From: an uncultured Thermoplasmata archaeon
Lineage (GTDB): Archaea; Thermoplasmatota; Thermoplasmata; Halarchaeoplasmatales; Halarchaeoplasmataceae
Direction of reading: 5' to 3'
DNA length: 19,919 bases
Assembly: GCA_964399335.1 (NCBI GenBank)
Contig: CAYNQI010000019.1
Span: 1-19,919, forward strand
Position numbers and translations under genes: made by a program. Shown here in pieces: positions 1-16,396 of this stretch (the first letter of the stretch is position 1; each line of letters starts with the position of its first letter). The notes beneath the pieces were generated by a model. It had not been told where the DNA came from and made no database searches. It saw nothing but the letters and a program-made list of their open reading frames with translations.

Positions 1-298
1 GGTACAGTAACTCAGGTGGTTCGAACTCACCATCTATCTGAACCTCTACAGAGTGGCCATAAAGGGCTCTGATCCTGCCACCGTCGATCTCGAATCGATT
101 ACGGTCACTTTCCATGACTAACTTTTCAATCTTTTCCAAATCGATCCATTCGTAACCGGACTCTTTTAGATGAGATATGACCTCGTTTAGTGGTGCAAAA
201 CCTTCTTCATCCAGTTCTAAATTGGCTGTTCCAGGATCGTGCCTTAATATATATGATAGATGCTTACTCAATTTAGTGAATTTTTCAGATGTTACCAT
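1..298 (-). CDS. kptA: RNA 2'-phosphotransferase (Tpt1/KptA family), runs off the window edge (3' part missing)
   Basis: Not in the ORF track. Manual translation from ATG 298: MVTSEKFTKLSKHLSYILRHDPGTANLELDEEGF...NRFEIDGGRIRALYGHSVEV...EPPELLY. It has the SxxLSYILRH, RF(E) and IRAxYGHS motifs of Tpt1/KptA. Confidence 0.93.
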   Translation of the reverse strand, partial: MVTSEKFTKLSKHLSYILRHDPGTANLELDEEGFAPLNEVISHLKESGYEWIDLEKIEKLVMESDRNRFEIDGGRIRALYGHSVEVQIDGEFEPPELLY

Positions 299-366
299 GA
301 TGTCACTTAACAAATTTGATAGACACATTTATTTATCTTTCGTCACTACATAAACGCGTGGTATCC

Positions 367-636
367 ATGAACATCGCATTCGATTCGGTACTCCTAGGTA
401 TATTACTGGTTTTATCGATCCTAGGAACTATCACCTCTACGATATCTTACTTTCAGTTAAGAACAAGAAAGGTCATGGCGATAACGATTTTATTTAGCAT
501 TTTTCTCATAAAAAGTTCTGTGATGGCGGTCTCAAGGTTATGGTATCCCATCATCTCGAATTCCATAGACCCGATAATTTTAGTTCTAGATATATGTATT
601 TTAGCTGCGCTTTTCCTATACGGTTTTAAGGAGTGA
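367..636 (+). CDS. Small (~89 aa) membrane protein, 3 predicted TM helices; partner of the downstream wHTH regulator (module A)
   Basis: Three hydrophobic stretches; aligns by eye with 19556..19822. ATG 367 is preferred over TTG 316 because it matches the paralog's length and leaves room for a promoter. Confidence 0.8.
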   Translation: MNIAFDSVLLGILLVLSILGTITSTISYFQLRTRKVMAITILFSIFLIKSSVMAVSRLWYPIISNSIDPIILVLDICILAALFLYGFKE

Positions 637-642
637 CACCAC

Positions 643-1149
643 TTGACAGATGACACTTTAGAGCTTGGACCTAGAAAAAAGATCTACCAGACCATAGATG
701 ATTCACCAGGTCTTCATTTGAGGCAGATAGATCGCAAGCTCGATATCCCTCTAGGTACCATAAGGTATCATCTTAGAGTTCTAGAAAAAAAGGATCTAGT
801 CACCTCCAAAAAAGAAGGTAAGTACAAGAGATTTTACGCAAAAGGAAGTATCGATAGGAGCGACAAAAAGATACTATCATCATTAAGAAAAGAGATACCC
901 AGGACCATCATCTTGTTCTTGATGGAGTATCCCCGTTCCACTCACAAAGATATCAACGCAGCATTAGATATCGCACCTTCTACACTCTCGTATCATTTAA
1001 AGAGACTAAAAAACAAAAGTATAATCATCAACAAAAACAAGGAATACAGTATCAAAGACCCGGATAAGATCGCTGACCTGTTGATCCAATATCAACAAAC
1101 TTTCTTGGACAGTTTGGTGGATAGGTTCGTAAGGATCTGGAACAAGTAA
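643..1149 (+). CDS. Tandem winged helix-turn-helix transcriptional regulator (ArsR/MarR-like folds), module A
   Basis: Two HTH units (PGLHLRQIDRKLDIPLGTIRYHLRVLE; STHKDINAALDIAPSTLSYHLKRL). TTG start preceded by GGAGTGA. Paralog of 19013..19546. Confidence 0.88.
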   Translation: MTDDTLELGPRKKIYQTIDDSPGLHLRQIDRKLDIPLGTIRYHLRVLEKKDLVTSKKEGKYKRFYAKGSIDRSDKKILSSLRKEIPRTIILFLMEYPRSTHKDINAALDIAPSTLSYHLKRLKNKSIIINKNKEYSIKDPDKIADLLIQYQQTFLDSLVDRFVRIWNK

Positions 1150-1153
1150 TAGG

Positions 1154-4100
1154 TCATTCATCGTCTTTTGGATCCTTTTTCTTGAACTTGAATATCAATA
1201 GATTAAAAATCAAAATAAATCCTATAGATAGGGTAAATCTTCCAAACTCGAATTCTGGTATTGTGGTAATATCTACAGCCTCGTCGAAGGCACTGCTGTA
1301 ATAAGACCCTACATACAGTGTAGTTTCGTCGGTTACGTTACCAACATCCGCAGGGATCTCGATCTCCAAAGAAACATCGATAGATTCACCGCCGTTCATC
1401 CAACCGGTATCCGGGATACCATCATCAGTGGTGTCCCAGTCAGGGTTCACATGATCCCAATCTCCATCACCGCCTATATCCATAGCGATCAGTTCTCCAT
1501 GCTCGGAATACAGTGACACGTTGAACCCCTGAGAAGAAGTTACAAGCATATGGAATACATCGACGCCTGAACCTGTGTTCTGGATCGTATGTTCGTAAGT
1601 CACGTTACTACCAGCTTGAGCCGTATCGTTATGGTCGGGATACACATCTACACCAGATACCACATCGAACGTACCGTAGCCAAAAGAAGTAACACCGTTG
1701 GACTCGATAGCTTCGATCTTGATATCGTAACTTCCCGTAAGAGCGTCTTCAGGAAGGTCAAAAGAGTGAGTGAAATTCGCCCAGTAAGATGGGTCAGATG
1801 GATCAACTTCATCCAATTCCATCGGTTGGCCGTCTAAAAGCACGGTCCCGTTGGGATCAGATATCGAAACGTTAGCGCCGGCGATATCATAACTTCCTAT
1901 AGGATCACCTATCATAGCCTCGACACTGACTTCCTCACCGGCTGAGAATTCATCAGTTTCCACTTCACCGTCATAGGTTTTAACGTCCAAAACTTCGATA
2001 TATGTATCTGTAAGAACTTCTAACCTGGAATCGTACTCACCGCTGTTGTAAAGAACTGTTATATCAGCTTCACCGGTGGATACCTGTAATTCCAATGGAT
2101 TTCCCTTAGAAATCATGTGATCCGTTGAAAATGAGAAGGTATACCATCCTTCCTCTTCGATGTCGGTGATGGTATCAGTACCTATGACATCGCCTTCCTC
2201 GAATAGAGAAACCGTAACGTCGGGCACTCTATGACCGCTGGGATTAGGATCTATGTATATATGGACTAGAGCACTATCAATTAACGAAAAATCTTCAGCC
2301 ATGTCAGGATCCTGAACCCATAAATTACTCTCACCGGCTTCGATAGTGGTTTCAACGGTATCGTCTCCCATGAAAGTGTTCAAAATATCATCATTAAGCA
2401 AGTAAAATGTTTTCATCTCCTCTGACAAGGGGATCTCCGTAGTGAAAATAGCATCATCGGATACGTCCGTAAAATTCATGGAAACGGCATGTAACTCCGT
2501 CTCGTCTTTCAAACCTTCACTATCCTCTGGAACTACTTTTTCAAAAGAAAAGGTCTTCTCTTGGGTTTCCTCGATGAAGACTTCAAGCTCACCTGCAGAA
2601 TCCCAAGAAGTATCCACCCAATCCCACTCACCAGTACCACCTATATCTTCAGCGATCAAATACCCGTCGTAATATAGATTGGTTGTCCAACCTCTGCTGG
2701 ATACACCCGGTTCCAATTTGTACGAATCGTCGACATTACCTATGTTTTTCACATTTACTGTAAAATTAACTTTTTCTCCAGACTGGGCTATTTCATGTCC
2801 GTCAGGATAAACAGAAACTCCAGGATCATCGGGGATCGAAAAATATGTGACTCCAGTGTGTGCATTGTCCTGGTTATCCCAAGCGTTAACTCTCACTTCG
2901 TAGCTCCCGCTAGGTGTATAATCTTCTAAAATAAATGAATAATTATAAAGTGTGTAAAACGGAGGTTCCTGGCTATCACCATCATAAAATTCCATCTCAT
3001 CCTCTAAAAGGACAGAACCGTCCGGATAATAAACTGTGACTTGGTTTCCCTGGACTAGATCTGTGCTGATAGCATGTGTTACATTCCCCCTGATCTCTAC
3101 TTCGTCACCACCTTCAAAAAAGTCCTGTGACTCCCCGTCCTCATCAAAGGTCTCTACGTCAACCACTTCGATGGTAGTATTGGTCGGTAGCCTCAAGCGG
3201 GAAGCTCTATCTTGGGAATTGTAATATACATCTAACTCCAAAGACTCGGTATCCTCAGGACCAGTGATCGATGTAGTTAGAGTCAGTGATTCACCTTTTG
3301 GGATCTTATGGTAATCTAATTCTAATGGGATAGTGTACCAACCTTCGGAGGATAACCCATCTCTCTCTCCTTGAGATATCACTCCCGATCCTGTCGATAA
3401 AGTTACTCTGACCCCGGGTTTATTAGCGCCCCTAGGAGTGGGATCTAGATAAATCAAAGCCTCCATATCACCAGTTATCTCAAAGTCATCAGCAAACTCC
3501 TCAAACATCCAATCGTGTTCCCTTTCTCCATCTCTATTAACTAAATTCAAAATTGATTCATCAGTACCTCTTTGAGTCCGTAAAACATCGTTACCACGCA
3601 AGTAGAAATTTTGAGTGGTTTCAGTACTAGTGAGTACCATATTTGGACCATCCTGTACTGTGCTCAAAATCACAGAATCTCGATTGGTGCTCCAATCAGA
3701 AGTCACAAAAATAACTTCAAAGCCATCTAAAAGCCCTTCTAACCCATTACACACGAATTCCATAGAATTGCCAGTGATTGCAAAATCTAAATCAATATCC
3801 ATATCCGACCATCTACCACCACTCCATCGCTGAACTTCAAAATCCCGAACCTCACCGTACTGCCCTTTGAACCGTATCTTATACTCAGCCCTTGAACCCA
3901 TTATATCATAACCATCTCCATCACCGCTGTCGAGGTAGACTTCGATGGTATCTTCACCTGTACGTAATGGATCAGGTCTAGGACCGATGTACCTGGAAAC
4001 CTCTCTTCCCCAGTACCTTTCAGGTATCTTTGGATCCTCTGGAATAGTCGTGTTCAACCATTTATCGGGACCATACGGCCAATCAGCGACTCCGTCACCA

Positions 4101-6487
4101 TCTACGTCTGGAAGAAGTTCACCATCAACCTCCACGAACATCTCGGAATCTGGGGTACCGTCGTTAGTAAAGTCATTCGGATAAGGATCATATTTATCCG
4201 GGATCCCGTCACCATCGGAGTCTCTTAGTTCCTCAACATATCGTTCAACACCCTCAGGTATAGCTGTACCCCCAAGGATGTTATCCCGAGTGCTTAACAT
4301 GAAATAACCGCTGTCATCGAACATCTGCATACCATATCTCTTGATGTCGATGCGATCAGGTACATCACTTTCAGGAGCCTCCTCGTACCTTCCCCAATCA
4401 CCAAAGGCACCGTCTATAACCACTTCGTCGGGAACTTCTTCGAAGTAATAAAATCCACCTGAACCAACGATCCTATTCACTGCATCGGACTCTACATCGA
4501 CTATCTCCAACCCCACCATCTTCCCAGCTTCAACAGCAGGCACTCCCGATACAGAGACCCTAAATTCTTCTTCACTCTCAAGCTCCAAAGGAAGATCTAG
4601 TTCAGGGTCAAAAGATATGGATTCGAAATGTTCATCTCCTCTAAACTCCAAGGTTTCTACCTCTACAGGGCCCCCATAAGATCGGAATACGAGTTCGGAT
4701 ACGATAATATCAACACTTTCTAAAACGTCTTTATCTAAACCGCTTTGGTGAACTGTAAGCGATGGTTTATCAGGAGATATTAGCTGTTCAGCCTCAGCTT
4801 CGTTTCCAGTATGGTCCAAAGCTATCAATTGTGAATGAACTTCACGGCCCCTAACATACATATCTGGAAAAGAAAACTCTACCTCATTTCCAGATCTCTC
4901 TATCTCCAATCCTGCAAGATGTCTCCAACCGAACCAATTGTTATCGAGTGTTTCGTTCTCGTATCTGTAAAGCTGGCCGTACACACTATCACCCCATCCT
5001 TGTATCTTGACCATATACTGAGCTTCTAATTCACCGGTTCTATAGAACTCTGATCCATCTCCTGTTTGAATAAAAACATAGACGGCATCCATCCTTTTAT
5101 CGGATCCTCCGACTAAAGCATCCTCTTCCGTCTTAAAATAATAGTTAAGTCGGTCCCGGGACCTTTCTACAGCACATTCAACTATATTTGCACTCGGAGA
5201 GATACCTACCATTTCGATTTCTACCCTATCTACATCTTCCCAATCTTCGAAATCGCCGTCTATGACGATACCTTCATCCGGTTCTTCATAGATAAAAAAG
5301 TGAGCAGAGCCTAATAATATTCCAATTATCAAGAAAAATATCACAGCAGACACAACTGTTTTTTTCCATTTTAAACGGCGTTCTAATGAACGCTTTTCTT
5401 CCCTGAGGCCGTTGATAAAACCAGCCTCACTTTTAGAATCGGTCTTCGAACCGTTCTCCAAACCGTTGATAAAACCAGCCTCACCCTTAGAATCGGTCTT
5501 CGAACCGTTCTCCAAACCGTTGATAAAACCATCATCGTCCTTAAGTTTAGTATCCCCTTTAGATCCGTTTTCTAGTCCATTGATGAATCCGTCTCTCTGG
5601 GAATTCGGAAATCCGCTTAAATTTCTACTTTTTAACTTACGGGGAGATTTAGACAAGTCGAAACCATCCCCTTCGATCGATTTTAAAATATAGTCGACGT
5701 AAACTTTTGCATCTTCAAATTTACCTAAAGAATATATCTTTTTCAAGCGGGTCAAGTGGTTATCTATATCATTTATAAGTTCATCATCATCAAAGTGTTT
5801 TACCTTTTCATTCAGTTTATTTATCGAATCCCCAACAGATTCCATAACATCTATGCCGGACTCTAAATTTTTTAAGACCTCAAAACAGGCATGATATCTC
5901 CCTTCGGCCTCCAACTTTTTAATTTTATTGAGCAGTAAGTTTATCGACCTTATGTGTGATGAATAGATGAATTCTTCCTTCTCAAGGTTATTTATTCTTT
6001 CTCTTACGCCTTTCAATTTCTGATCCAACTCTATCTTTTTCTTTCTGTTATTCACAAATATGTTGACAAGATTTTCACCAATGTCGTGTTTCTTTGACTG
6101 TCTATCGATCATCCCAGATATCTTATTGTAAAATACATTGCCCTTACCAACTGGATGTACAAGTTCGCTTTTACTTTGTACGAATCTACCAACGATACTA
6201 TCTTCAGTTCTACCGTTGATAGTTTCTTCACAATACGGACATGTCTGATCATTTTCGAAATAAAAACCACAACTATCGCACTTCTCAAGATCATCAGTCA
6301 AATCCCTAGCACTCTCTAAAATCATTTTGGCCTTATGATCACCTATCCCAGGTATGTCTTTTAATTTATCATGACCTAATTCTAACAGACCCTCGACTCC
6401 TTTAATCCCTTCCCTTTCATATAAAATTTTAGCGGTTTGGTCCCCGATATATCGGATCCTCTTTAATCTGTTTAGTACCTCATTCAT
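1154..6487 (-). CDS. 1777-aa membrane-anchored surface protein: HhH, Zn ribbon, GFINGL repeats, TM, acidic Ig-like/beta-rich exodomain, PEF-CTERM-like tail
   Basis: Long ORF with SD GAGGAG before ATG 6487. IPGIGxxKA HhH motif, CDSC..CPYC, hydrophobic helix after RRLKWKK, DSDGDGIPD Ca-binding-like motifs, many NxT/S sequons, and terminal IPEF + hydrophobic helix + KFKKK. Confidence 0.9.
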   Translation of the reverse strand: MNEVLNRLKRIRYIGDQTAKILYEREGIKGVEGLLELGHDKLKDIPGIGDHKAKMILESARDLTDDLEKCDSCGFYFENDQTCPYCEETINGRTEDSIVGRFVQSKSELVHPVGKGNVFYNKISGMIDRQSKKHDIGENLVNIFVNNRKKKIELDQKLKGVRERINNLEKEEFIYSSHIRSINLLLNKIKKLEAEGRYHACFEVLKNLESGIDVMESVGDSINKLNEKVKHFDDDELINDIDNHLTRLKKIYSLGKFEDAKVYVDYILKSIEGDGFDLSKSPRKLKSRNLSGFPNSQRDGFINGLENGSKGDTKLKDDDGFINGLENGSKTDSKGEAGFINGLENGSKTDSKSEAGFINGLREEKRSLERRLKWKKTVVSAVIFFLIIGILLGSAHFFIYEEPDEGIVIDGDFEDWEDVDRVEIEMVGISPSANIVECAVERSRDRLNYYFKTEEDALVGGSDKRMDAVYVFIQTGDGSEFYRTGELEAQYMVKIQGWGDSVYGQLYRYENETLDNNWFGWRHLAGLEIERSGNEVEFSFPDMYVRGREVHSQLIALDHTGNEAEAEQLISPDKPSLTVHQSGLDKDVLESVDIIVSELVFRSYGGPVEVETLEFRGDEHFESISFDPELDLPLELESEEEFRVSVSGVPAVEAGKMVGLEIVDVESDAVNRIVGSGGFYYFEEVPDEVVIDGAFGDWGRYEEAPESDVPDRIDIKRYGMQMFDDSGYFMLSTRDNILGGTAIPEGVERYVEELRDSDGDGIPDKYDPYPNDFTNDGTPDSEMFVEVDGELLPDVDGDGVADWPYGPDKWLNTTIPEDPKIPERYWGREVSRYIGPRPDPLRTGEDTIEVYLDSGDGDGYDIMGSRAEYKIRFKGQYGEVRDFEVQRWSGGRWSDMDIDLDFAITGNSMEFVCNGLEGLLDGFEVIFVTSDWSTNRDSVILSTVQDGPNMVLTSTETTQNFYLRGNDVLRTQRGTDESILNLVNRDGEREHDWMFEEFADDFEITGDMEALIYLDPTPRGANKPGVRVTLSTGSGVISQGERDGLSSEGWYTIPLELDYHKIPKGESLTLTTSITGPEDTESLELDVYYNSQDRASRLRLPTNTTIEVVDVETFDEDGESQDFFEGGDEVEIRGNVTHAISTDLVQGNQVTVYYPDGSVLLEDEMEFYDGDSQEPPFYTLYNYSFILEDYTPSGSYEVRVNAWDNQDNAHTGVTYFSIPDDPGVSVYPDGHEIAQSGEKVNFTVNVKNIGNVDDSYKLEPGVSSRGWTTNLYYDGYLIAEDIGGTGEWDWVDTSWDSAGELEVFIEETQEKTFSFEKVVPEDSEGLKDETELHAVSMNFTDVSDDAIFTTEIPLSEEMKTFYLLNDDILNTFMGDDTVETTIEAGESNLWVQDPDMAEDFSLIDSALVHIYIDPNPSGHRVPDVTVSLFEEGDVIGTDTITDIEEEGWYTFSFSTDHMISKGNPLELQVSTGEADITVLYNSGEYDSRLEVLTDTYIEVLDVKTYDGEVETDEFSAGEEVSVEAMIGDPIGSYDIAGANVSISDPNGTVLLDGQPMELDEVDPSDPSYWANFTHSFDLPEDALTGSYDIKIEAIESNGVTSFGYGTFDVVSGVDVYPDHNDTAQAGSNVTYEHTIQNTGSGVDVFHMLVTSSQGFNVSLYSEHGELIAMDIGGDGDWDHVNPDWDTTDDGIPDTGWMNGGESIDVSLEIEIPADVGNVTDETTLYVGSYYSSAFDEAVDITTIPEFEFGRFTLSIGFILIFNLLIFKFKKKDPKDDE
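5409..5590 (-). repeat. Coding tandem repeat: two 54-bp units plus degenerate copies, encoding four GFINGL motifs
   Basis: Units 5409-5462 and 5463-5516 differ at 2 nt. The third unit starts at 5517 with 14 identical nt and then diverges (60 bp). A fourth motif lies at 5577-5590. Confidence 0.95.
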
Positions 6488-6597
6488 TGCTCCTCTTTTA
6501 ATAAGAAATCTTGATCATGCTAATAATTTATTTGGTTCCTTAAAAACATTCCTTATTCCTATTGATGAATACTATATTGAATTTAGTGACTACGTAA

Positions 6598-6614
6598 GGA
6601 AAAGTTTTAAAATA
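6598..6614 (+). promoter_or_regulatory. Putative BRE/TATA promoter of the trxB-like gene
   Basis: GGAAAAG followed by TTTTAAAA (6605-6612), ending 28 nt before ATG 6641. Confidence 0.55.
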
Positions 6615-6640
6615 AGTTCATAGGATGAAGTTTAGATACG

Positions 6641-7552
6641 ATGTATGACGTTTTAGTAGTAGGTACAGGTCCCGCAGGTTATACTGCTGCACTCTACGCC
6701 GCAAGATACAAACTCGATACAATAATGATCGGAGAGATGCCTGGGGGCTTGATATCTGAAGCACCAGATGTTTGCAATTTTCCCAGTAGAAAGAGTATCA
6801 GTGGGATGGAACTAGCCAGCAAGATGGAAGAACAGGTAAAAGACCTGGGTGTAGAAGTTGTTTATGATAAAGTCGAAGACATCAAAGGCAGCGATAATGA
6901 CTTCAATATCGTCGCTTCAAGAGATGGATATAAAGCGAAAAAGGTAATTCTGGCTACAGGTCAGGAAAGAAGAAGGCTTGGTTTGGAGAGAGAAGGTAAA
7001 TTAACTGGTAGAGGTGTGAGTTACTGTGCTACTTGCGACGCAGCATTCTATAACGATAAAACGGTAGGTGTTGTAGGTGGTGGAGATGCTGCACTGGCTT
7101 CAGCACTATTACTAGAGGAATATGCTGAAAGGGTTTATATCTTATACAGGAAAGATAATTTCTTCCGTCCGGAACCCATCAGGGTCGAAGAGGTGGAACA
7201 AAACGAGAATACCGAATCTATCTTTAACGTTAATGTCGAAGAACTCATAGGAGATAAAAAACTCACTAGTGTCAGGCTAGATAACGGTGAAACTCTGGAA
7301 CTCGATGGTCTCTTCATAGAAATAGGTTCGATACCCAACAACGAACTGGCAAAACAGATAGGGGTCAAAATCGTCGATGATGGTTATATCAAGACAGATG
7401 AGAATAGAAGAACTAATGTTCCAGGTATATACGCAGCCGGGGACATAATCGACTCGCCGTTAAAACAGGCTATAACCGCTGCGGGACAGGGCGCAGAAGC
7501 TGCTGCCTCGGTTTATGAAGATATTCAAAGGCAAAGGGTAAGAGATGAATAA
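6641..7552 (+). CDS. trxB: Thioredoxin reductase-like FAD-dependent disulfide oxidoreductase
   Basis: GTGPAGYTAALY FAD-binding motif, GRGVSYCATCD redox CxxC, VGGGDAA, and T.VPGIYAAGD motif. Confidence 0.92.
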   Translation: MYDVLVVGTGPAGYTAALYAARYKLDTIMIGEMPGGLISEAPDVCNFPSRKSISGMELASKMEEQVKDLGVEVVYDKVEDIKGSDNDFNIVASRDGYKAKKVILATGQERRRLGLEREGKLTGRGVSYCATCDAAFYNDKTVGVVGGGDAALASALLLEEYAERVYILYRKDNFFRPEPIRVEEVEQNENTESIFNVNVEELIGDKKLTSVRLDNGETLELDGLFIEIGSIPNNELAKQIGVKIVDDGYIKTDENRRTNVPGIYAAGDIIDSPLKQAITAAGQGAEAAASVYEDIQRQRVRDE

Positions 7553-7581
7553 TCAACTAAATTAGGAGATATAAAAACCAT

Positions 7582-8529
7582 ATGAAATCTACGAAAAAGG
7601 CAGGATTGATAACGGTGATCATAGCGATCACGATAATTGCTCTTATTTTAACCCATACATTTTTACCTACCTATATCAAAGACAGAGGTAATCTCTATAG
7701 AGATTGGGAAAAAGGACAATGGCATTTGAATAATGACGACTACGATGAACTATTTATCGAATATGATTATGTAGAGGGCTACAAGCCGAACACGACTGCC
7801 ATATATGAATTTGAAAATGTTTTAAGAGAATATACAGATAAAGAAGATATAACTCATCATATGGGTGATGTGATTCCATACCAGGATACGAAACCAGTTT
7901 ACGGTGAAAATGATCTAGCATTTCTTGAAAATAGATACAGGGATGAAGAGACTAAAGGCAATACACTGGTCATCTATGTATTGTATTTAGATGGGGAATG
8001 GAAGCAGGAGGATGTTCTAGGACTCTCTTATAGAGGAACGAACATCGTTATTTTCATGGAAAAAATAATGACTAGTGCCGACAGAAGTAACAACATAGGC
8101 CACGGTGACATAGAAACCTCCGTTCTGATCCATGAATGGGGGCATCTAATAGGACTCGTTGGAAAAGATTATGATGCAGATCACGAAGATACAGAATATC
8201 CCCATCACTGCAACCAAGAGGCAGGAAGATGTGTAATGGCAGCTTCCGTTGAGATTAAGGGTGGTGAAGGTTCACAACCTCCTCCTACTGAGTTCTGTGA
8301 ACTATGTCAAGAAGATATCGAAGAAATCAAAAATATGTATGATCCTTGGGGTCCAGCTGAAATCTTAACTTACATATCCATGGGTGGACAAACATTGATT
8401 GGTTTAACTTGGGTCGTTAGCGTTAGTAAACATAAAGAGGAAGAGATGTACAATAAAGAAACCTATAAGGATGGCCTTTCTCATGAGGAAATGGATTATA
8501 TCAAAGATGACGAGAAAAAATATTACTGA
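7582..8529 (+). CDS. Membrane-anchored putative zinc metallopeptidase (HExxH)
   Basis: N-terminal hydrophobic helix, LIHEWGHLIGLV followed by HED..HHC..CVM and CELC, and a second hydrophobic segment near the C-terminus. SD AGGAG upstream. Confidence 0.72.
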   Translation: MKSTKKAGLITVIIAITIIALILTHTFLPTYIKDRGNLYRDWEKGQWHLNNDDYDELFIEYDYVEGYKPNTTAIYEFENVLREYTDKEDITHHMGDVIPYQDTKPVYGENDLAFLENRYRDEETKGNTLVIYVLYLDGEWKQEDVLGLSYRGTNIVIFMEKIMTSADRSNNIGHGDIETSVLIHEWGHLIGLVGKDYDADHEDTEYPHHCNQEAGRCVMAASVEIKGGEGSQPPPTEFCELCQEDIEEIKNMYDPWGPAEILTYISMGGQTLIGLTWVVSVSKHKEEEMYNKETYKDGLSHEEMDYIKDDEKKYY

Positions 8530-9230
8530 TCTCCCATCTCATAAGAGAAACTATAATTAACCTCTAAATTTGAGCTGTTTTCCCTTTGGCTTCTCAATTC
8601 TCTCAACCTTACTGTTTCAACATCTTCGCCTTGGAGCTCTTTTAACAAGCCTGGCACGTGGCCATCACCAACAACCGCTATCACCGAGTCGTATCTTTTA
8701 TCTAACTCTTTGATATTCTCAGCCATGTGATCATTTCTTTCATCTATGAGTACACGAGATATCGAAGGCATGTTTTTTTCCAATATGTCCATGTAATCGG
8801 CCTCATTTTTCTCATATCTCTCCATTTCTTTCTCGACTCGTTCCTTACTTGTAAAAAGTCCCGCAACCATCCCGGCTATAAAGTATATTTTTTCTTTTAA
8901 GCTCATAGCTTTCATCATCTTCTTGAATGTTAAATTCGCTGGAAGGTCTATGAAAGCTACGCCTATCCCCAACTCTTTCGCTATTTCTACGGCTGCCAGC
9001 ATCTCACTACCAACCTTTACACCAAAGTCATCTGCTATCTTCTTTTGTAAGATACTCATGGCTCTGTACATCAGTGGAACATCTTTTTTATCGTCGCCCT
9101 CGGATTTCAAAGCCACATATCTCTGTTTATCCAGTTCTACAGCTATAACTGATGGGTTTCTTGAAACGATCTCCTCTCTCAATCTTTCTGAGATATCGAA
9201 CACATGAGCGGTACCGATTATCGTTATCAT
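8523..9230 (-). CDS. TraB/PrgY (TraB/GumN) domain protein
   Basis: IIGTAHV, VIAVELD, GSEM, LIDERNDHM and VVGDGH motifs typical of the TraB family. Confidence 0.88.
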   Translation of the reverse strand: MITIIGTAHVFDISERLREEIVSRNPSVIAVELDKQRYVALKSEGDDKKDVPLMYRAMSILQKKIADDFGVKVGSEMLAAVEIAKELGIGVAFIDLPANLTFKKMMKAMSLKEKIYFIAGMVAGLFTSKERVEKEMERYEKNEADYMDILEKNMPSISRVLIDERNDHMAENIKELDKRYDSVIAVVGDGHVPGLLKELQGEDVETVRLRELRSQRENSSNLEVNYSFSYEMGDQ

Positions 9231-9264
9231 AAGTTATTATCATTGGAAACGATGAAGGGAACGG

Positions 9265-9272
9265 TATAAAAA
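9265..9272 (-). promoter_or_regulatory. Putative TATA box of the TraB-domain gene
   Basis: TTTTTATA on the minus strand, ~35 nt upstream of ATG 9230. Confidence 0.45.
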
Positions 9273-9284
9273 TGTATTTGATTT

Positions 9285-10199
9285 CTAATCATGGCTATGT
9301 TCCTTTTCAGGATGACATATCTTCTGCACCGTATCATCACCACACTCCACGCACTCTAGTTCTAAAGTAGAATGATATATATGGAATTCGTTGTGGAGTA
9401 TATCACGTATATCGGTTTTGATCCGTTCCGACTCCATCATACTCATATCCTCAACCAATATATGTGCTGAAAAGGAATGGATACTAGAACATAGGGTCCA
9501 AAGATGTACATCGTGTATATCCCTAACTCCATCCAATTTTTTAATATGTTCTACCACATCGGACACTTCTAAATCCTCGGGGGTCCACTGCATTATAACT
9601 CCTATAGATTCTTTCAATAATCTAACCGAGCCTGATATTATCAACAGTGCTATAAGGACACTCAATATAGGATCTACTAGATAGTTGCCTGTTAAGTATA
9701 TAACAACAGCTCCCAATACTACCGCTCCACTGGAAAGGGTATCAGCTAGTAGATGTAGATATACCCCTCTCACATTGATGTCTTTATGTCCATGGAGTAG
9801 TCGTGTAGCATAAAGATTGCCCAACAAACCGATAACTGCCACAACGAGCATCTCAGTTGATTTCACTGCCTGTGGGGAAAGAAAACGCTGATAGGATTCG
9901 TAAAGTATGTAACCACTTACGAAAAGCAGTATCACCGCATTCAATAGTGCGGCCAGGACTTCCGCTCGATGATGACCAAAAGTCGCTTTATCGTGGGCTG
10001 GTATGGCTGCCAAGTTGATGGCAGTTAGTGAAGTAGCTATGGCAAATGTATCCGTAAGTACATGTCCAGCATCGCCCAGTAAGGCTAATGAGTTCGAGAT
10101 CAGATATCCAACCAAAGCTACTATCACCAAACCGATATTGATAGCCAATGCTATCCTTAGCTTACCTTTAGTACCTGTAAAAATGGATTTCAAACCCAT
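9285..10199 (-). CDS. Cation diffusion facilitator (CzcD/ZitB-like, probably Zn/Cd/Co efflux)
   Basis: SLALLGDAGHVLTD, TFGHHRAEVLAAL and HLLAD motifs (HxxxD/HxxxD site), six TM helices, and a His-rich C-terminal domain. Confidence 0.93.
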   Translation of the reverse strand: MGLKSIFTGTKGKLRIALAINIGLVIVALVGYLISNSLALLGDAGHVLTDTFAIATSLTAINLAAIPAHDKATFGHHRAEVLAALLNAVILLFVSGYILYESYQRFLSPQAVKSTEMLVVAVIGLLGNLYATRLLHGHKDINVRGVYLHLLADTLSSGAVVLGAVVIYLTGNYLVDPILSVLIALLIISGSVRLLKESIGVIMQWTPEDLEVSDVVEHIKKLDGVRDIHDVHLWTLCSSIHSFSAHILVEDMSMMESERIKTDIRDILHNEFHIYHSTLELECVECGDDTVQKICHPEKEHSHD

Positions 10200-11260
10200 G
10201 TCCGTATCACCTTTGCTAACTTTTGCAAACCTAGTGCGAGTTTTTGAGTCTCCATTCCAAAACAGAGCCTTATATGATCATCGCAACCTTTAGAAAAGAA
10301 TCCGCCCGGCGATACTAAGATACCCTCTTCAAGGGCTCTCTTTGAAAATTCATACGAATCACATGGGAGTTTTAATTTAGGGAATGATATGATACCGGAA
10401 GATGGTGGGACCCATTCGATATTTTTATTTCCTTCTATCCAACCCCTGACCATGGAAAGGTTCTTTTCAGTTAGATCTCTAACCTCTGCTAATAACGTAT
10501 CTCTGTTTTCTAGGACTTTCAAAACTAACTTTTCAGACAAGGTTGAATTCAAAAGGTTCATATCATATTTCATGCTATATATTTTCTTAATTAGCTCTTC
10601 ATTTCTAGAAGCTATCCAACCTACACGGATGCCACCCATACCAAAGATCTTCGAAAAACTAGATGTTACAATTACATTGTCCCCTGTTTTTAAAGCTGAA
10701 GTACCGTTCTTGACAAAATCTCTGAAGATTTCATCTACGATCAAAAGTATATCTCTATCTTCAAGGATCTGTTGTATCTCTTTCATTTTATCTTCATCTA
10801 AAAAAACTCCACTAGGGTTGTGTGGATTTGTTAAAACCAAGGCCTTTGTTTTTGAACTTATGATATTTTGTAATTCATCTGTTTGTATTTCAAAACCATC
10901 CGCATACAGTCTCTCAAACGGTTTAACTTTTAAACCTAACTTCCTTGGAAATTTCAACAAAGGTTGGTAAGTGGGAGTTTCTACTATTATTTCTTCGCCC
11001 TTTTCCAATAGAGTTAAAAAAGCTACTGAATTTGCAATCTGTGTTCCAGGTAGTGGGACCACTTCAACCCCTTTATAAATCTTAGATAATTTTTTTTGTA
11101 ATTTAAGGTCATATTCGTCTGTATAACCGGTATCAAAGGATGATGGGTATTCACCGTCATTAAAAATAGATATATCTCGCACACTACTTGAGGCTAGATT
11201 ATACTCAACATCCTCATTCTCTCTAAGAAAATCCCTTAATGGGAAAGTAGATTGTTTCAT
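10190..11260 (-). CDS. PLP-dependent aminotransferase, class I/II
   Basis: TNPHNPSG, IVDEIF, SSFSKIFGMGGIRVGW (PLP lysine) and HIRLCF motifs. Confidence 0.93.
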   Translation of the reverse strand: MKQSTFPLRDFLRENEDVEYNLASSSVRDISIFNDGEYPSSFDTGYTDEYDLKLQKKLSKIYKGVEVVPLPGTQIANSVAFLTLLEKGEEIIVETPTYQPLLKFPRKLGLKVKPFERLYADGFEIQTDELQNIISSKTKALVLTNPHNPSGVFLDEDKMKEIQQILEDRDILLIVDEIFRDFVKNGTSALKTGDNVIVTSSFSKIFGMGGIRVGWIASRNEELIKKIYSMKYDMNLLNSTLSEKLVLKVLENRDTLLAEVRDLTEKNLSMVRGWIEGNKNIEWVPPSSGIISFPKLKLPCDSYEFSKRALEEGILVSPGGFFSKGCDDHIRLCFGMETQKLALGLQKLAKVIRTWV

Positions 11261-11404
11261 AATTGAACCGATATATTTTGGATAGTTAAAAACAATTTCG
11301 GATTTTTGTGCTAAAAATCAGTTATTTTCAGGAAAAAATTAAATAATTTGGAAGGGATGGGAAAGCGCGTCAAAATACAGGGTTGAAAAGAAGGAGTAAA
11401 TCAG

Positions 11405-12523
11405 ATGAAAAAACTTATTCTCTGTGTGGACAGGGATGATGATATAGGGACTAAAACAGGCCTTAAAACACCTATTATCGGTAGGGAAGACATGCTCAAT
11501 GCAGCTGTGAAACTAGGTCTAAAGGATCCTGAAGATTCAGATACCAATTCACTGTTTTCTGCCTTATCTACGTATGATGAACTTAAAAAACAGGGAGAAG
11601 AAGTAGAGATCGCTTGTGTGACAGGTTCTCCTAACATAGGTTGGAGATCAGATGAGATCCTTGCTAAAGAACTGGATCATGTACTAGAAACCCTTAAACC
11701 CGATTCTACTATATTAGTTTCTGATGGTGCAGAAGACGAATACATAACACCTATTATCACTTCGAAAGTCAACATATCTCATGTTAAGAATGTTCATGTA
11801 AAACAAATGAGAAGTGTAGAAAATTTTTATTACATGTTAGTTAAAAGCATGCAGGAGGAAAAGACAAAAAAGAAAGTGCTTTTCCCTATATCTTTAGCAC
11901 TTCTTGTATACGGCTTTTTTACGGTATTATCCCTGATCGGAGATATATATTATAGAAGATGGGGGGCTCTAGAAGGTTTTTCTTCATTCGGTGTAGGTTT
12001 AATATCATTTGTACTCGGAGTTTACATAATAGGTAGGATATTCGAATTAGATAGAAAATTAATAGATGCATATTATGATTTGAAAAAAGCTATCAGTACA
12101 GCTGCGGTATGGCTTCCGTTCACAATAGTAGCTATATTAATAGTGTTAGGTAGTACTCAGTTAGGATGGGGGGCGATACTCAGATTAGACGATCCATCTA
12201 TGTCTATCGCCTTTCTGACATTTGCTAGTACTGTGATATGGTGGTGGATAGGAGCTATTCTACTTCACGAACTGGGACAGGTAATAGATATCTATTTAAA
12301 ACAAGGTAAGATAAAGAAGTCTTTCTGGGCGATATTGTTCTCCCTTTTAGCCCTTACATTCATCTTCTGGGGTGCCTTTAGTTACATCCGGGTTATGGTT
12401 GGGATGGAAGCAGCAAACGTTCTACCTATGGTAGCTATAAATATTACACTGGGATTATTGATCGGAATACTTGGTGGTATAACCCATACCAGTTTCGAAG
12501 ATGATGAAGACGAAGAGGAATAA
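11405..12523 (+). CDS. DUF373 family archaeal membrane protein
   Basis: LILCVDRDDDIG.K, DPEDSD.N and VSDGAEDE motifs followed by several TM helices. SD AGGAG upstream. Confidence 0.9.
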   Translation: MKKLILCVDRDDDIGTKTGLKTPIIGREDMLNAAVKLGLKDPEDSDTNSLFSALSTYDELKKQGEEVEIACVTGSPNIGWRSDEILAKELDHVLETLKPDSTILVSDGAEDEYITPIITSKVNISHVKNVHVKQMRSVENFYYMLVKSMQEEKTKKKVLFPISLALLVYGFFTVLSLIGDIYYRRWGALEGFSSFGVGLISFVLGVYIIGRIFELDRKLIDAYYDLKKAISTAAVWLPFTIVAILIVLGSTQLGWGAILRLDDPSMSIAFLTFASTVIWWWIGAILLHELGQVIDIYLKQGKIKKSFWAILFSLLALTFIFWGAFSYIRVMVGMEAANVLPMVAINITLGLLIGILGGITHTSFEDDEDEEE

Positions 12524-12543
12524 AAAATCAATAAGGTTTTGCC

Positions 12544-13179
12544 ATGAATTATAAAGATTGGAAACCGATATATGAAGAGATCATCAAGGATTTTGGTTAT
12601 TCAAAAGAAAAAGACATCATGGCCGCTAACGTACAGAGTGAAGTAAGGGGTTCAGATAGTTTAAAAATCTTAAAAAGATTACAGGGCTCCAGCGTAGAGA
12701 TATTAGGGCCGTATGCTGAAAATCCAAGTGAGAAAATCGTAATGATAGCTGGGGCATCCCTATCGCATCTAGATAAAATTGATATCGATAACTCTTTTTT
12801 AGTTACGGACCTGGACGGAGACACGATTTTACAGAAAGAAAAAAACAAAGATGGTCTAACTACCCTTATCCACGCCCATGGGGACAATATAGATTTGATA
12901 AAAAAATATAGTCCCGAATTCACAGGTCACGTGATATCTACATGTCAGTGCCGACCCTTAGAAAATGTTTACAATTTCGGCGGCTTCACAGACGGGGATA
13001 GATGCGTTTTTATCGCTGATCATTTTAAAGCTAAAAAAGTCATATTGAACGGCTGGGATCTAGAGAATCCTGCTCCGAAAGGGGATAAGAGGATAAAAAA
13101 GAAGAAACTTAAGTGGGCACATAAACTTATACGGTTAGTAGATATTCCGATCTCGGTAAAACAATCAAAGGGTTTATAA
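12544..13179 (+). CDS. mptE: 6-hydroxymethyl-7,8-dihydropterin pyrophosphokinase (MptE/DUF115 family)
   Basis: W.PIYEEI..DFGY, VTDLDG, HAHGDN, GGFTDGDR and KLKWA motifs. Confidence 0.88.
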   Translation: MNYKDWKPIYEEIIKDFGYSKEKDIMAANVQSEVRGSDSLKILKRLQGSSVEILGPYAENPSEKIVMIAGASLSHLDKIDIDNSFLVTDLDGDTILQKEKNKDGLTTLIHAHGDNIDLIKKYSPEFTGHVISTCQCRPLENVYNFGGFTDGDRCVFIADHFKAKKVILNGWDLENPAPKGDKRIKKKKLKWAHKLIRLVDIPISVKQSKGL

Positions 13180-13212
13180 CCATCGAATTTCATTCCTAAT
13201 TCCTTTACAGTG

Positions 13213-13232
13213 AAAGGGGAACCTTTATATAA
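13213..13232 (+). promoter_or_regulatory. BRE/TATA promoter of tfb
   Basis: Purine-rich AAAGGGGAA followed by canonical TTTATATA (13224-13231). Confidence 0.7.
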
Positions 13233-13270
13233 GCAACATAAAAATTAGAACGAAAAATGGGTATGTTAAA

Positions 13271-14206
13271 ATGGAAGATAAATCACAAAAAAAGATCGAA
13301 AAGATACAGCAGTGTCCCGAATGTTCGAGCGAACATATCTCAAAAGATTACAATAGGGGAGAGCTGTTGTGTGAAAATTGTGGTTTAGTTTTAGATGATG
13401 GATATATAGATGATGGACCCGAATGGAGGGCCTTCGACGCTAAACAGAAAGAAAAAAGGGCTAGAACTGGCGCCCCAATGAACTACCTGAGCCATGATAA
13501 AGGACTTTCCACATCTATATCTTGGAAAAATAAAGATGCTTATGGGAGGACAATACCTCACAAAAATAGAGGGCAGATCTATCGAGTCAGAAAATGGCAC
13601 AGGAGGATAAGGGTTTCTAACGCCACTGAGAGAAATCTAGCTACTGCTTTAAGAGAACTAGATAGATTATCTTCAAAGATGGGATTGCCTAGAAGTATAC
13701 GTGAAACTGCTGCTATGATCTATAGAAAGGCAGTTGAAAAGAATTTGATAAGAGGAAGAAGTATCGAAACTGTTATTGCATCCTCTTTATACGCCGGCTG
13801 CAGGAAATGCGACGTACCCCGGACGCTTACTGAGATCTCAGAGGTGGCCCAGGCCGATGAAAAACAGATCGGTAGAGCATACAGATTTCTTTCTAGAGAA
13901 CTTCAACTAAAACTACTCCCGACCAGACCTGAAAATTATATCAAAAGATTTTGCAGCAAATTAAATCTCGGGAGGAATGTAGTGAACAAAGGTGAAGAGA
14001 TCATAGAACAGGCTAACGAGCTCGGATTGACTTCGGGTAAAGGACCGACAGGTATAGCTGCCGCCGCCATTTATATCTCTTCAATATTAGAAGATACACC
14101 AAGAACACAGAGAGCGATCGCCGAAGTTGCTGGAGTTACTGAAGTAACGATCAGGAATAGATATAAAGAGATAGCTAAAAAAATAGGTATCACCATAGAA
14201 ACGTGA
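13271..14206 (+). CDS. tfb: Transcription initiation factor IIB
   Basis: Zn ribbon CPEC..CENC, GPEWRAF B-reader, two cyclin repeats, and [13 protein letters not shown]-terminal HTH. Confidence 0.98.
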
Positions 14207-14274
14207 TCACCATTATCACTTTAGGGATAATTTTATACGTTATTAAAATATTCTAAATGGGCTGAGGTATCGAT

Positions 14275-14655
14275 TTGGCTAGAGTTAGGATTGATGAATT
14301 CAAAAAGGCTGTAACCAAGGTATTGAAGGAGAGAGATATCGATCCTGAAGAAGCAGAAGAGATATCTGAGAAGATAATGAATCTATTTGGATACGATAAG
14401 TCAATAACGGATAATTTATTGTCTTCTAAAGAAAGGGATCTATTTTATATGCTTGAAGATTATGATATTTTAACTACTGAGGAAGAAACCGCCTATCTCC
14501 CTAGTGGAAAAAGGTGGAGGATACATTACTGGAAAATTAAGGAAGACAAGATAAGGGAGATATTATCTCAAGAGAATGAAAAGGATGAAGAGGAAAAAGA
14601 AAAGTCTATTTATGATGATATCTCAAATGATATATGGAAAAGAGCTAATACATGA
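14275..14655 (+). CDS. Conserved hypothetical protein (resembles the DUF6015-type family as I recall it)
   Basis: TTG start with GAGGT SD at 14264-14268. Motifs FGY...DN.L...R.LFY.LE and EE...LPSGK.WRI.YW. ATGA overlap with the next gene. Confidence 0.7.
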   Translation: MARVRIDEFKKAVTKVLKERDIDPEEAEEISEKIMNLFGYDKSITDNLLSSKERDLFYMLEDYDILTTEEETAYLPSGKRWRIHYWKIKEDKIREILSQENEKDEEEKEKSIYDDISNDIWKRANT

Positions 14656-15269
14656 ATGGCATTAAAAAAAAACATCTTGAAATAAAACTAGAAAGGGTCC
14701 CTCCTCATCCAGATCCTAAACCTGAACTTGAACAATATCCTACCCCGACATATGTTGCTACCGATATATTGTACAATGCATATCTAAATAGAGATATATT
14801 GGGGAAAAAGGTCTTTGATTTTGGATGTGGTACAGGAATTTTTTCTTTAGGGGCGGCGATACTAGGTGCTGAAAAGGTGATCGGAATAGATCTTGATAAG
14901 AAAGCAGTAGATATCGCTATCAAACTAGCAGAAGAGTGGGGTTTAGAAGATAAAATAGACTTTGAAGTAAAGGATGTAATAAATTTCAAAGAAAAGGGCG
15001 ATACTGTTTTGATGAACCCTCCTTTTGGATCTCAAAATAAAGGTGCTGATGTACCATTTTTAAATAAAGCTTATAAAAGCTCTATTAAGTTATACAGTCT
15101 GCATAATCAGAAAACTGAATCCTACGTCAGGAAACATATTATAGAAAATGGATTCAACATTTTTTGGGAAAAAAGATATATGTTGGGAATAGATAAGATT
15201 TTTGACTTTCATACAAATGAATCGAAGGATATAAAAGCAATACTATTTGCTGCTGAGAAAATTAAATAA
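14652..15269 (+). CDS. METTL5-like SAM-dependent (probably rRNA m6A) methyltransferase
   Basis: LEQY.TP, DFGCGTG SAM-binding motif, catalytic NPPFG; sits next to csl4. Confidence 0.9.
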   Translation: MNGIKKKHLEIKLERVPPHPDPKPELEQYPTPTYVATDILYNAYLNRDILGKKVFDFGCGTGIFSLGAAILGAEKVIGIDLDKKAVDIAIKLAEEWGLEDKIDFEVKDVINFKEKGDTVLMNPPFGSQNKGADVPFLNKAYKSSIKLYSLHNQKTESYVRKHIIENGFNIFWEKRYMLGIDKIFDFHTNESKDIKAILFAAEKIK

Positions 15270-15294
15270 GAGTAATTCATTAAGAGGTAATAAT

Positions 15295-15870
15295 ATGGAA
15301 AAAACAAAAGATAATCTTGTGGCTCCTGGAGACAAATTAGGAGCAAGTGAGGAATGGTTACCTGGGAAGGGAACTTACGAGGAAGAGGGTTATGTGTATT
15401 CATCAGTGTTCGGTAAAGTAGAATATGATGAGGATAATCTAGAAGCAAAAGTAATACCTGTAAACCCAGTTTCAGAAGTTAAAAAGGGGGATACTATCTA
15501 TGGTAAAATACGAAATAATAGAGGATCTATAGCTTCTATGTCAGTAAATCTAATTGAAGGTGAGCCTAGAGGAATATCTACAGATCTAGAAGGCTCCTTA
15601 CATATATCGAAAATTTCTGAGGACTATGTTGAAAGTGTGGACTCGGCTTTTAAAAAAGGTGACGTAGTCAGAGCAGAAATCATACAGGTTGAACCATCTA
15701 TACAGTTAAATAGCCAATCAAAGGACCTAGGTGTAGTCAAGGCATTCTGTGTTAACTGTAGAAAAGATTTACAATTGAAAAGGGGAAAATTATATTGTGA
15801 AAATTGTGACCATTACGAAAACCGTAAAATATCCTCAGCATATGGTAAAATAAAACTAAAAGATAGATGA
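15295..15870 (+). CDS. csl4: Exosome complex RNA-binding protein Csl4
   Basis: V.PGD.LG..EE..PG.GTY N-terminal domain, S1 domain, LGVVKAFC..C...C..C Zn ribbon and E.RK.S. ATG 15295 has a GAGGT SD. Confidence 0.95.
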   Translation: MEKTKDNLVAPGDKLGASEEWLPGKGTYEEEGYVYSSVFGKVEYDEDNLEAKVIPVNPVSEVKKGDTIYGKIRNNRGSIASMSVNLIEGEPRGISTDLEGSLHISKISEDYVESVDSAFKKGDVVRAEIIQVEPSIQLNSQSKDLGVVKAFCVNCRKDLQLKRGKLYCENCDHYENRKISSAYGKIKLKDR

Positions 15871-15890
15871 TGTATATTGGAGGTTAAAAC

Positions 15891-16130
15891 CTGTCAAGAA
15901 CTTCAAAAACATTGATGGCTCTAGAAGAGAGAGAAAAATGGAGAAGAAGAGAGAAAGAGATATTGGGGAAACTGAAAAAAATCCGTCGTAAAAAGAAAAA
16001 ATTAGAGAATGAAGCTAAGAAAATAAAAGAGAATATAAAACAGATAGAAGATGTTCTAAGGTCTGCTAAGCGAGATGAGATGAGCAAGGTAAGGATCACT
16101 GACAGGTTCGATGAGCACATTATAAGGTGA
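15891..16130 (+). CDS. Small basic coiled-coil protein (start uncertain: CTG 15891, TTG 15912 or ATG 15915)
   Basis: K/R/E-rich heptad pattern, codirectional and tightly packed. GGAGGT SD lies 6 nt before CTG 15891. Confidence 0.65.
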   Translation: MSRTSKTLMALEEREKWRRREKEILGKLKKIRRKKKKLENEAKKIKENIKQIEDVLRSAKRDEMSKVRITDRFDEHIIR

Positions 16131-16134
16131 TTTT

Positions 16135-16359
16135 ATGAAGGAAGCTAGTGTAGAGGATCTCCATAACGCATTATCAAGCTACAGAGAGAAGTACAGTGAA
16201 ATCAAGAAAAAAATTGACAAGCTTGATAAAGAGGAACAAAAACTAGAAAAAGAATTGGAAACTATCAGAAATCACCTTAGCTACTATGATTCTTTAGTTT
16301 CTGATATGAAAAAGAAAATGCAGGGCAGAAAAAACCTTGATTTTTTTGACCATTTATAA
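16135..16359 (+). CDS. Small coiled-coil protein (74 aa)
   Basis: Heptad pattern (IKKKIDKLDKEEQKLEKELETIRNHLSYYDSLVSDM). The SD AGGTGA includes the upstream stop codon. Confidence 0.75.
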   Translation: MKEASVEDLHNALSSYREKYSEIKKKIDKLDKEEQKLEKELETIRNHLSYYDSLVSDMKKKMQGRKNLDFFDHL

Positions 16360-16396
16360 CCAAAAGGGATTTAAATCCTACTTGGTTTCGGGGTAT

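Follow-up and report, generated by a model that had tools for sequence, protein, structure and literature searches.

A predicted cytoplasmic helix-hairpin-helix and zinc-ribbon head on a giant archaeal surface protein, a candidate adaptor of a trans-envelope assembly

Helix-hairpin-helix (HhH) domains bind nucleic acid without sequence specificity. Paired HhH domains, (HhH)2, are found in PolX/Pol beta, Hef/XPF, the N-terminus of RadA/Rad51, UvrC and NusA (AR1/AR2), and ComEA carries such a module on a membrane anchor. To our knowledge, very little is known of how the surface coat of archaea is connected to the cell interior, especially in the wall-less or S-layer-poor Thermoplasmata. Here we describe a gene, P0001, in a stretch of 19,919 nucleotides (the window; contig CAYNQI010000019.1 of assembly GCA_964399335.1, positions 1 to 19,919 of the forward strand) from an uncultured halophilic Thermoplasmata archaeon whose nearest named relatives belong to Candidatus Saliniplasma (order Halarchaeoplasmatales). 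The encoded protein is a huge, salt-adapted surface protein with an (HhH)2 domain in an N-terminal head. This domain has its fold and its Pfam family in common with the (HhH)2 domains listed above, including a canonical GIG hairpin followed by K-A-K, but the enzymatic or NusA core of PolX, Hef, RadA and NusA is absent after it and the domain is instead tethered to the membrane. Whereas the HhH module of ComEA faces outward behind an N-terminal anchor and has no ectodomain partner, that of P0001 lies N-terminal to a positive-inside anchor. Each component of P0001 is of a known kind (an (HhH)2 domain, a zinc ribbon, adhesin-like arrays of beta-sandwiches, a tail of the sorting type), and literature searches returned no description of the architecture that they form. 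Two things are new: tail-anchored proteins that stand alone are homologous to the head, and these proteins are in turn paired, in a conserved way, with another giant surface protein.

P0001 and its cytoplasmic head

P0001 is a single open reading frame (ORF) that occupies positions 1154-6487 of the minus strand of the window, 1777 codons without interruption (Table 1). An earlier, sequence-only reading of nucleotides 5290-6487 had described a product lacking an N-terminal signal peptide, in which two HhH-like hairpins, a CDSC..CPYC motif, a helical region, repeats and a basic patch precede a transmembrane (TM) helix, with the whole head placed inside the cell by the positive-inside rule and fused in one chain to a giant exodomain. 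Its coordinates were exact, as the range corresponds to residues 1-399, the cysteine motif at 6280-6230 to Cys70, Cys73, Cys83 and Cys86, and the TM helix at about 5365-5290 (TM1) to residues 375-399, and each of these features was borne out by the analyses that follow, which gave none of the three outcomes named in that reading as grounds for refuting it.

A Kyte-Doolittle scan of the whole protein found two hydrophobic segments only, at residues 377-400 and 1748-1768, and no hydrophobic segment at the N-terminus that could be a signal peptide. Four GFINGL motifs and the basic patch RRLKWKK precede TM1; the 15 residues before it include eight Lys or Arg, the 15 after it include none and eight Asp or Glu, and the helix itself contains a conserved GxxxG (G389, G393). 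The net charge of the head is neutral, against a median of -0.04 per residue for the proteome of this genome. After TM1 there are 1377 residues, and the ectodomain has a net charge of -224 and 14 N-x-S/T sequons, about twice the number expected from shuffled sequences (7.3 +/- 2.3). A Shine-Dalgarno-like GAGGAG lies immediately 5' of the ATG at 6487, an AT-rich TATA-like element lies some 45 nt 5' of the same codon, and the initial residues are the same in every orthologue. Because there is no signal peptide, the charges flank TM1 in this way and the ectodomain is acidic and rich in sequons, residues 1-376 are predicted to be cytoplasmic and residues 401-1743 to be outside; every topology indicator (charge, sequons, hydropathy and start signals) agrees.

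The joining of head and ectodomain in one chain is conserved. Four orthologues from other assemblies (P0002-P0005, one of them named Candidatus Saliniplasma; three full length, with P0003 a partial record of 1388 amino acids) have the whole architecture of P0001; their identity to it is 41-67% for the head and 62-83% for the ectodomain. In all five orthologues G47, G49, K52, A53 and K54 are invariant, as are the GFINGL motifs, W374-K-K-T, the TM1 GxxxG and the IPEF tail, and I14, G15, T18, A19 and K20 are invariant in all eight aligned sequences. P0011 of the sister genus G096, a more distant positional orthologue with the same upstream genes (TrxR-like, HExxH membrane protein, TraB and aminotransferase), has the architecture in part: the (HhH)2 domain is retained, together with two G-x-x-N-G-x motifs and a motif of the E-D-S-I-V-x-x-F type. 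When residues 1-100 were used in a word-indexed search aimed at longer proteins, close orthologues alone were returned. Since four orthologues in other assemblies have the whole architecture, the P0001 fusion, judged from these comparisons, is not an assembly chimera. One might still argue that the true surface protein starts near the TM helix, with the head a separate or spurious ORF attached to it by misassembly, and there are in-frame TTG or GTG codons at residues 325, 343 and 379. Set against this are the 1777 codons without a stop, the retention of the head from residue 1 in five assemblies with its structural residues invariant, the Shine-Dalgarno site at ATG 6487 and the confident modelling of the (HhH)2 domain and bundle; such an artefact is already contradicted by the data at hand, and we assign it a negligible probability.

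The fold of the head was modelled with AlphaFold2 on eight sequences. The (HhH)2 domain (residues 1-66) has a predicted local distance difference test score (pLDDT) of 80-87, and Pfam HHH_5 (PF14520) matches residues 7-62 with 33.6 bits in the whole protein and 36.3 bits in the head alone, above the cut-off of 27. Structure comparison with VIA placed PolX first (Z 8.8, root-mean-square deviation (rmsd) 2.1 A over 68 residues), with NusA AR1 at 8.4, AF1548 and Hef at 8.2, and FANCM/FAAP24, DisA, UvrC, LigA and Rad51 lower; Foldseek matched NusA AR2 (TM-score 0.77, rmsd 1.6 A over 59 residues), and a phmmer search of the PDB found PolX at E 7e-5. The confident structure-search matches are limited to this part of the head. 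Family assignments beyond the (HhH)2 fold stayed below threshold, NCBIfam giving only sub-threshold matches of P0001 to UvrC, RadA and RecR: RadA reached only E 0.017-0.058, far under the cut-offs, with the ATPase/RecA core absent from P0001 in the Pfam/NCBIfam scan, and RecR (TIGR00615) only E 0.02 and 14 bits against a cut-off of 162, over residues 51-93, with no Toprim domain.

The four cysteines, spaced CxxC-x9-CxxC, are invariant among the five orthologues, and the model forms short strands at residues 67-69 and 76-78, in a hairpin (residues 67-86) with pLDDT 61-71. Zn_ribbon_3 reaches only E 0.15 and 12 bits against a cut-off of 27, such short models being insensitive, and an ESM Atlas search gave sub-threshold matches (0.78) to double zinc ribbon (DZR) proteins. 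In the linker that follows, which the model leaves disordered over residues 87-113 (as it does residues 275-370, where the four GFINGL motifs lie), I98 and F102 are invariant in eight sequences, including those of the P0011 clade that lack the zinc ribbon. The helical region is modelled as a bundle (residues 118-271, pLDDT 81-92) whose matches in the PDB are generic helical ones (EzrA at Z 7.1-7.3, designed bundles at about 7), within helical noise for both Foldseek and VIA. In the model TM1 ends at about residue 398, with pLDDT of about 55-80. Taken together, these analyses show P0001 to be a real surface protein, bitopic and probably held by two anchors, whose cytoplasmic head is folded.

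Relatives of the head and of the ectodomain

An exhaustive phmmer search with the head returned, besides the orthologues, shorter proteins from the same phylum, Thermoplasmatota (P0009, P0010, P0015 and P0019). These consist of one or two copies of the (HhH)2, CxxC..CxxC and helical region and close with one TM helix at the very C-terminus. Residues 7-273 of the head align with this tail-anchored family at an hhalign probability of 98.4% (E 1e-14), the CxxC pairs of the head falling on those of the family. On this profile evidence, the P0001 head is shown to be the fused form of a membrane-anchored (HhH)2-zinc ribbon-bundle module. In all four loci for which upstream sequence is available, a gene for a giant protein of at least 1916 amino acids precedes the tail-anchored gene on the same strand, at a distance of 46-107 bp. 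The partner giants are homologous to one another and not to P0001, and have an archaeal pilin-type signal and a CARDB domain (by Pfam, in the one complete giant, at L042). Asparaginase and HypA/HypD genes lie downstream of these gene pairs. A phylum-wide search with the tail-anchored alignment was dominated by HhH-only matches in ORFs of about 290 amino acids and tells little of the range of the family.

Several further HhH proteins were noted along the way. Among the many such ORFs of about 290 amino acids (family f22), the one that was read, at L008 (G280:C12), encodes a KH protein that is like ribosomal protein uS3 and is extended at its C-terminus by (HhH)2. At L020 (G096:C11) a soluble ORF of 322 amino acids begins with (HhH)2 and continues with about seven Cys-rich FCS/TRASH-like zinc modules. 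A match on contig C146 was rejected as a relative, being the N-terminus of PolX.

Searching with residues 400-1777 identified homologues that are 35-40% identical across 99% of the ectodomain and that carry different heads. HHH_5 is found in P0011 and P0024, a KaiC domain (PF06745) in P0028-P0030 and P0032, DZRs with TPR in P0036 and P0045, and Asn-Gly repeats without any other head in P0025-P0027 and P0031. Whatever the head, G-h-x-N-G-h repeats (of which GFINGL is the P0001 form) stand directly N-terminal to TM1 in each of the 20 homologues of the ectodomain that possess a cytoplasmic part, in two to four copies in the orthologues and up to eight or more in the KaiC-headed relatives. The F/L-x-x-G spacing of the GFINGL repeats recalls the FxxA docking motifs of RecA-family ATPases, a likeness that we mention as speculation.

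One KaiC-headed relative, P0028, is the source genome's own paralogue. It lies on contig C16 and has a KaiC-like domain with a degenerate P-loop, and its operon also includes a KaiC gene and, after the giant, a gene for a membrane scaffold (Table 1). The order of giant and then scaffold is kept in the sister genus G096 (G096:C16), and the N-terminus of the scaffold has the same order of (HhH)2 and then ribbon as the P0001 head (E 1e-5). In a quick tree of the ectodomains the clade with HhH and ribbon is monophyletic. Because the HhH-only clade (P0011/P0024) groups with KaiC-headed proteins in this tree, heads appear to have been exchanged among ectodomains, as far as this quick method can tell. 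Two features lay outside the sequence-only reading, namely the existence of several heads that can replace one another, this one among them, and a second anchor at the end of the protein (a PEF motif, a TM helix and a basic tail).

Candidate roles of the head

That the head is cytoplasmic and functional we regard as very probable. Because its stand-alone relatives pair with giants, homologous ectodomains carry other heads, and the scaffold follows the paralogue, the head would best be understood as an exchangeable inner adaptor, a module that accompanies giant surface proteins in three configurations: fused to one, encoded next to one as a tail-anchored protein, or as part of a scaffold beside the KaiC-headed paralogue. 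As a whole, the explanation that we favour is a trans-envelope surface assembly with an exchangeable inner adaptor, to which we give a probability of roughly one half; the narrower proposition, that a surface-protein assembly has the head as its adaptor inside the cell, we consider rather probable from the comparisons above. P0001 would be the membrane-spanning core of this assembly, its ectodomain forming part of the cell coat or mediating adhesion. The family-wide Asn-Gly repeats may dock a common cytoplasmic partner, while the exchangeable distal head would fix a second partner under the membrane. In P0001 the head may bind nucleic acid without sequence specificity through the GIGxxKAK hairpin, which would hold nucleoid DNA or a nucleoprotein complex at the place where the surface protein sits. 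For the function of the head, the sequence-only reading had listed a chromosome-envelope tether, a receptor for DNA uptake or exchange, and a sensor released by cleavage. Other heads (inactive KaiC, zinc-ribbon/TPR) occur on homologous ectodomains and the module occurs separately beside other giants; the comparison therefore points to a general adaptor role at the inner face more than to one specific to DNA.

What the P0001 head itself binds is a more tentative matter. Since the GIGxxKAK hairpin is strictly conserved and most of the closest structural matches are (HhH)2 domains that bind DNA, sequence-independent nucleic-acid binding is the single most likely activity, although it falls short of an even chance, and DNA as the ligand is a possibility of the same order. 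A pure protein-adaptor role is nearly as likely, because the (HhH)2 domain is not basic and because NusA AR1/AR2 and the C-terminal domain of the RNA polymerase alpha subunit (alpha-CTD) match about as well. Several observations weigh against the favoured reading in one part or another. The net charge of the (HhH)2 domain is -1 and that of the zinc ribbon -5; NusA AR1/AR2 and alpha-CTD, with scores as high as those of the DNA binders, are (HhH)2 domains that act in protein-protein contacts; and the sister clade P0011/P0024 has neither zinc ribbon nor bundle. The four tail-anchored loci are mutually orthologous (about 32-58% protein identity) and so represent one conserved association, and the histories of head and ectodomain are, to judge from the quick tree, not simple. 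Finally, no KaiC gene adjoins P0001, the nearest gene for a KaiC/GvpD-like ATPase (window 16854-18368) being 10 kb away.

The adaptor could instead serve signalling purely through protein-protein contacts, the (HhH)2 domain, ribbon and bundle linking the surface protein to a hub of KaiC-like ATPases and winged helix-turn-helix (wHTH) regulators for outside-in signalling or ATPase-driven control of the coat. The paralogous ectodomains with an inactive KaiC head, whose genes have an active KaiC gene and the gene of an HhH/zinc-ribbon/TPR scaffold as neighbours, suggest such a hub, as does the double-wHTH regulator gene that abuts the 3' end of P0001 convergently, and the protein-binding domains among the best structural matches and the non-basic (HhH)2 domain would fit. 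Yet the adjacency to a KaiC-like ATPase holds for the C16 paralogue and not for the P0001 locus or for the syntenic locus of G096, where no KaiC gene adjoins either; the wHTH neighbour is not kept in G096; and the canonical GIGxxKAK signature of DNA contact is strictly conserved. We consider this signalling role less likely than the favoured reading, though the most serious of the rivals.

Much less probable is a membrane-tethered factor in which a signal received by the ectodomain would cause TM1 to be cut, releasing the HhH-zinc ribbon head to act on DNA. The bitopic layout resembles, by analogy from general knowledge, ToxR/CadC-type and anti-sigma RsgI-type proteins, and a membrane-anchored HExxH protein is a conserved neighbour, but its assignment as a protease is weak (E 4e-4), neither a cleavage motif nor a dedicated intramembrane protease was identified, HhH domains lack sequence specificity, and the tail-anchored relatives have no ectodomain with which to sense. 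We give even less weight to a receptor for DNA uptake or cell-cell DNA exchange, in which the ectodomain would contact cells or DNA and the head would receive the incoming DNA. HhH modules do act in uptake, as in ComEA, and the adhesin-like ectodomain has Ca-binding loops; however, the HhH module of ComEA is extracellular and that of P0001 intracellular, channel, ATPase and pilus genes are absent from the locus, and a single TM helix cannot form a pore. Proteolytic release and DNA uptake thus both have little support.

Within the favoured reading of an exchangeable inner adaptor, the strongest form, that the head binds chromosomal DNA and that P0001 and its split versions couple the nucleoid to the cell coat, seems improbable on present comparisons. 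If true, archaea would have in it their first chromosome tether across the envelope, a functional analogue of the LEM/HeH and LINC-type tethers of the eukaryotic nuclear envelope. More generally, the conserved link between giant surface proteins and a membrane-anchored module of nucleic-acid type, seen here fused, adjacent or replaced by a KaiC domain, is a concrete and testable candidate for trans-envelope coupling, whether for anchoring, signalling or nucleoid attachment, and for two uncharacterised protein families it suggests the partners by a Rosetta-stone argument.

Other features of the locus and related systems

Table 1. Coordinates of P0001, its parts and associated genes (window positions unless another contig or locus is named)
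Feature	Position	Strand	Basis or remark
P0001, whole gene, 1777 aa, probable two-anchor surface protein	1154..6487	-	single ORF and four orthologues of the same architecture
Start signals, GAGGAG and AT-rich TATA-like element	6488..6540	-	read from the sequence
(HhH)2 domain, residues 1-66, hairpins YIGDQTAK and GIGDHKAK	6290..6487	-	Pfam HHH_5, model, structure matches
C4 zinc ribbon, residues 67-90 (C70, C73, C83, C86)	6218..6289	-	invariant Cys, model
Linker, residues 91-117, motif E-D-S-I-V-x-x-F	6137..6217	-	pLDDT <50, motif conservation
Helical bundle, residues 118-272	5672..6136	-	pLDDT 81-92, hhalign to tail-anchored relatives
Disordered juxtamembrane region, residues 273-372, four GFINGL motifs	5372..5671	-	pLDDT below 50 (block means 24-44)
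Basic patch RRLKWKK and signal-anchor TM helix 377-400	5288..5371	-	Kyte-Doolittle peak 2.5, flanking charges
Ectodomain, residues 401-1743	1259..5287	-	beta-sandwich arrays, two DxDGDG Ca-binding loops, CARDB/DUF11/MG-like domains
Most conserved block, residues 753-840, Ca-binding loops and WLNTTIPEDP..RYWGREVSRYIGP	3968..4231	-	orthologues and C16 paralogue
Second anchor, P-E-F, TM helix 1748-1768, KFKKK tail	1157..1258	-	Kyte-Doolittle scan, conserved in orthologues
C16 operon: 148-aa ORF, KaiC, inactive-KaiC giant, scaffold	own contig C16 (L022) 6448-17209	-	
KaiC gene of the C16 operon	C16 16077-16766	-	
Giant paralogue P0028, inactive KaiC head, long x-N-G repeats	C16 10071-16068	-	100-nt run of N at 14981-15080
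Membrane scaffold, 1183 aa: Zn ribbon, HHH_5, about nine more zinc ribbons, TM helices, TPR	C16 6448-9999	-	
ArtA-type archaeosortase	own contig C6 (L002) 1408-2247	-	TIGR04125, 145.8 bits vs cut-off 75
Gene pairs of Pilin_N/CARDB giant and tail-anchored protein	L038 21-7638; L040 7-7179; L041 81-3193; L042 154-7140		other Thermoplasmatota metagenome-assembled genomes

The ectodomain gave weak matches to MG2, CARDB and DUF11 in Pfam and NCBIfam. A model of residues 401-1000 is all-beta, and Foldseek related it weakly (E about 1e-4) to the MG domains of CD109/A2M and to transglutaminase barrels; the fold search otherwise returned generic beta-sandwich matches only. Within the ectodomain, the block at residues 753-840 is nearly invariant among orthologues, and over 85 residues the protein is identical to that of the C16 paralogue, which is otherwise 37% identical. 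The DNA of the block is 83.7% identical between the two (41 mismatches in 251 nt, almost all silent). We considered gene conversion between the paralogues on C19 and C16 as the source of this identity and rejected it, as 41 of the 251 nt differ. Since the protein is identical while the changes in DNA are nearly all silent, the comparison indicates extreme purifying selection on the block, presumably for a function of the ectodomain.

The tail of P0001 is tripartite (P1744-E-F, the helix at 1748-1768 and a basic KFKKK), and IPEF is kept in the orthologues. The PEF-CTERM hidden Markov model TIGR03024 found no match in the last 41-48 residues at E <= 10, and the tail was also outside its genome-wide matches. 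The sole archaeosortase found in the source genome, which is 80% complete, is of the ArtA type, the type cognate to PEF-CTERM tails being ArtC, and no PGF-CTERM substrates were detected in that assembly. Several giant proteins of the genome carry PEF/SEF-type tails.

Two neighbours of P0001 are of note. On the plus strand, 7582-8529 encodes a protein of 315 amino acids with an N-terminal TM helix and an HEWGH motif, the counterpart of which in G096 has 303 amino acids; it may be a membrane-anchored metalloprotease, but its only match, to archaemetzincin, is weak and far under the cut-off. The double-wHTH regulator (an HVO_0163-type N-terminal HTH followed by HTH_24) is encoded at 643-1149 on the plus strand, its gene ending 5 bp from the stop of the giant gene.

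Among known systems, ZitP/GltJ-type bitopic proteins and the LEM/HeH tethers of the inner nuclear membrane offer an analogy, drawn from general knowledge, in that a small zinc-finger or DNA-binding head, one TM helix and a domain across the membrane are combined as in P0001; their partners and domains of life are other ones, and kinship in sequence or fold is not to be expected. The PEF-CTERM proteins (TIGR03024), which are predicted archaeosortase substrates, are likewise large and archaeal and end in P-E-F, a helix and a basic tail, but where the classical substrates have an N-terminal signal peptide P0001 has a cytoplasmic head of 375 amino acids. Closer are the two-anchor Thermoplasmatota giants with KaiC or HhH/zinc-ribbon/TPR heads, which like P0001 have a cytoplasmic head, Asn-Gly repeats, an acidic ectodomain and a PEF-type tail; the P0001 head differs from the KaiC and DZR/TPR heads in consisting of (HhH)2, one zinc ribbon and a bundle, without TPR and without an adjacent KaiC gene. 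The tail-anchored (HhH)2-zinc ribbon-bundle proteins (P0009, P0010, P0015, P0019 and P0047) have nothing outside the membrane, where P0001 has 1377 residues, carry an extra conserved region and Lys/Glu-rich tracts, and have as their partner giant a separate Pilin_N/CARDB protein that is not homologous to P0001. What they have in common with P0001 is a homologous supermodule, a membrane anchor at the cytoplasmic face and linkage to a giant surface protein.

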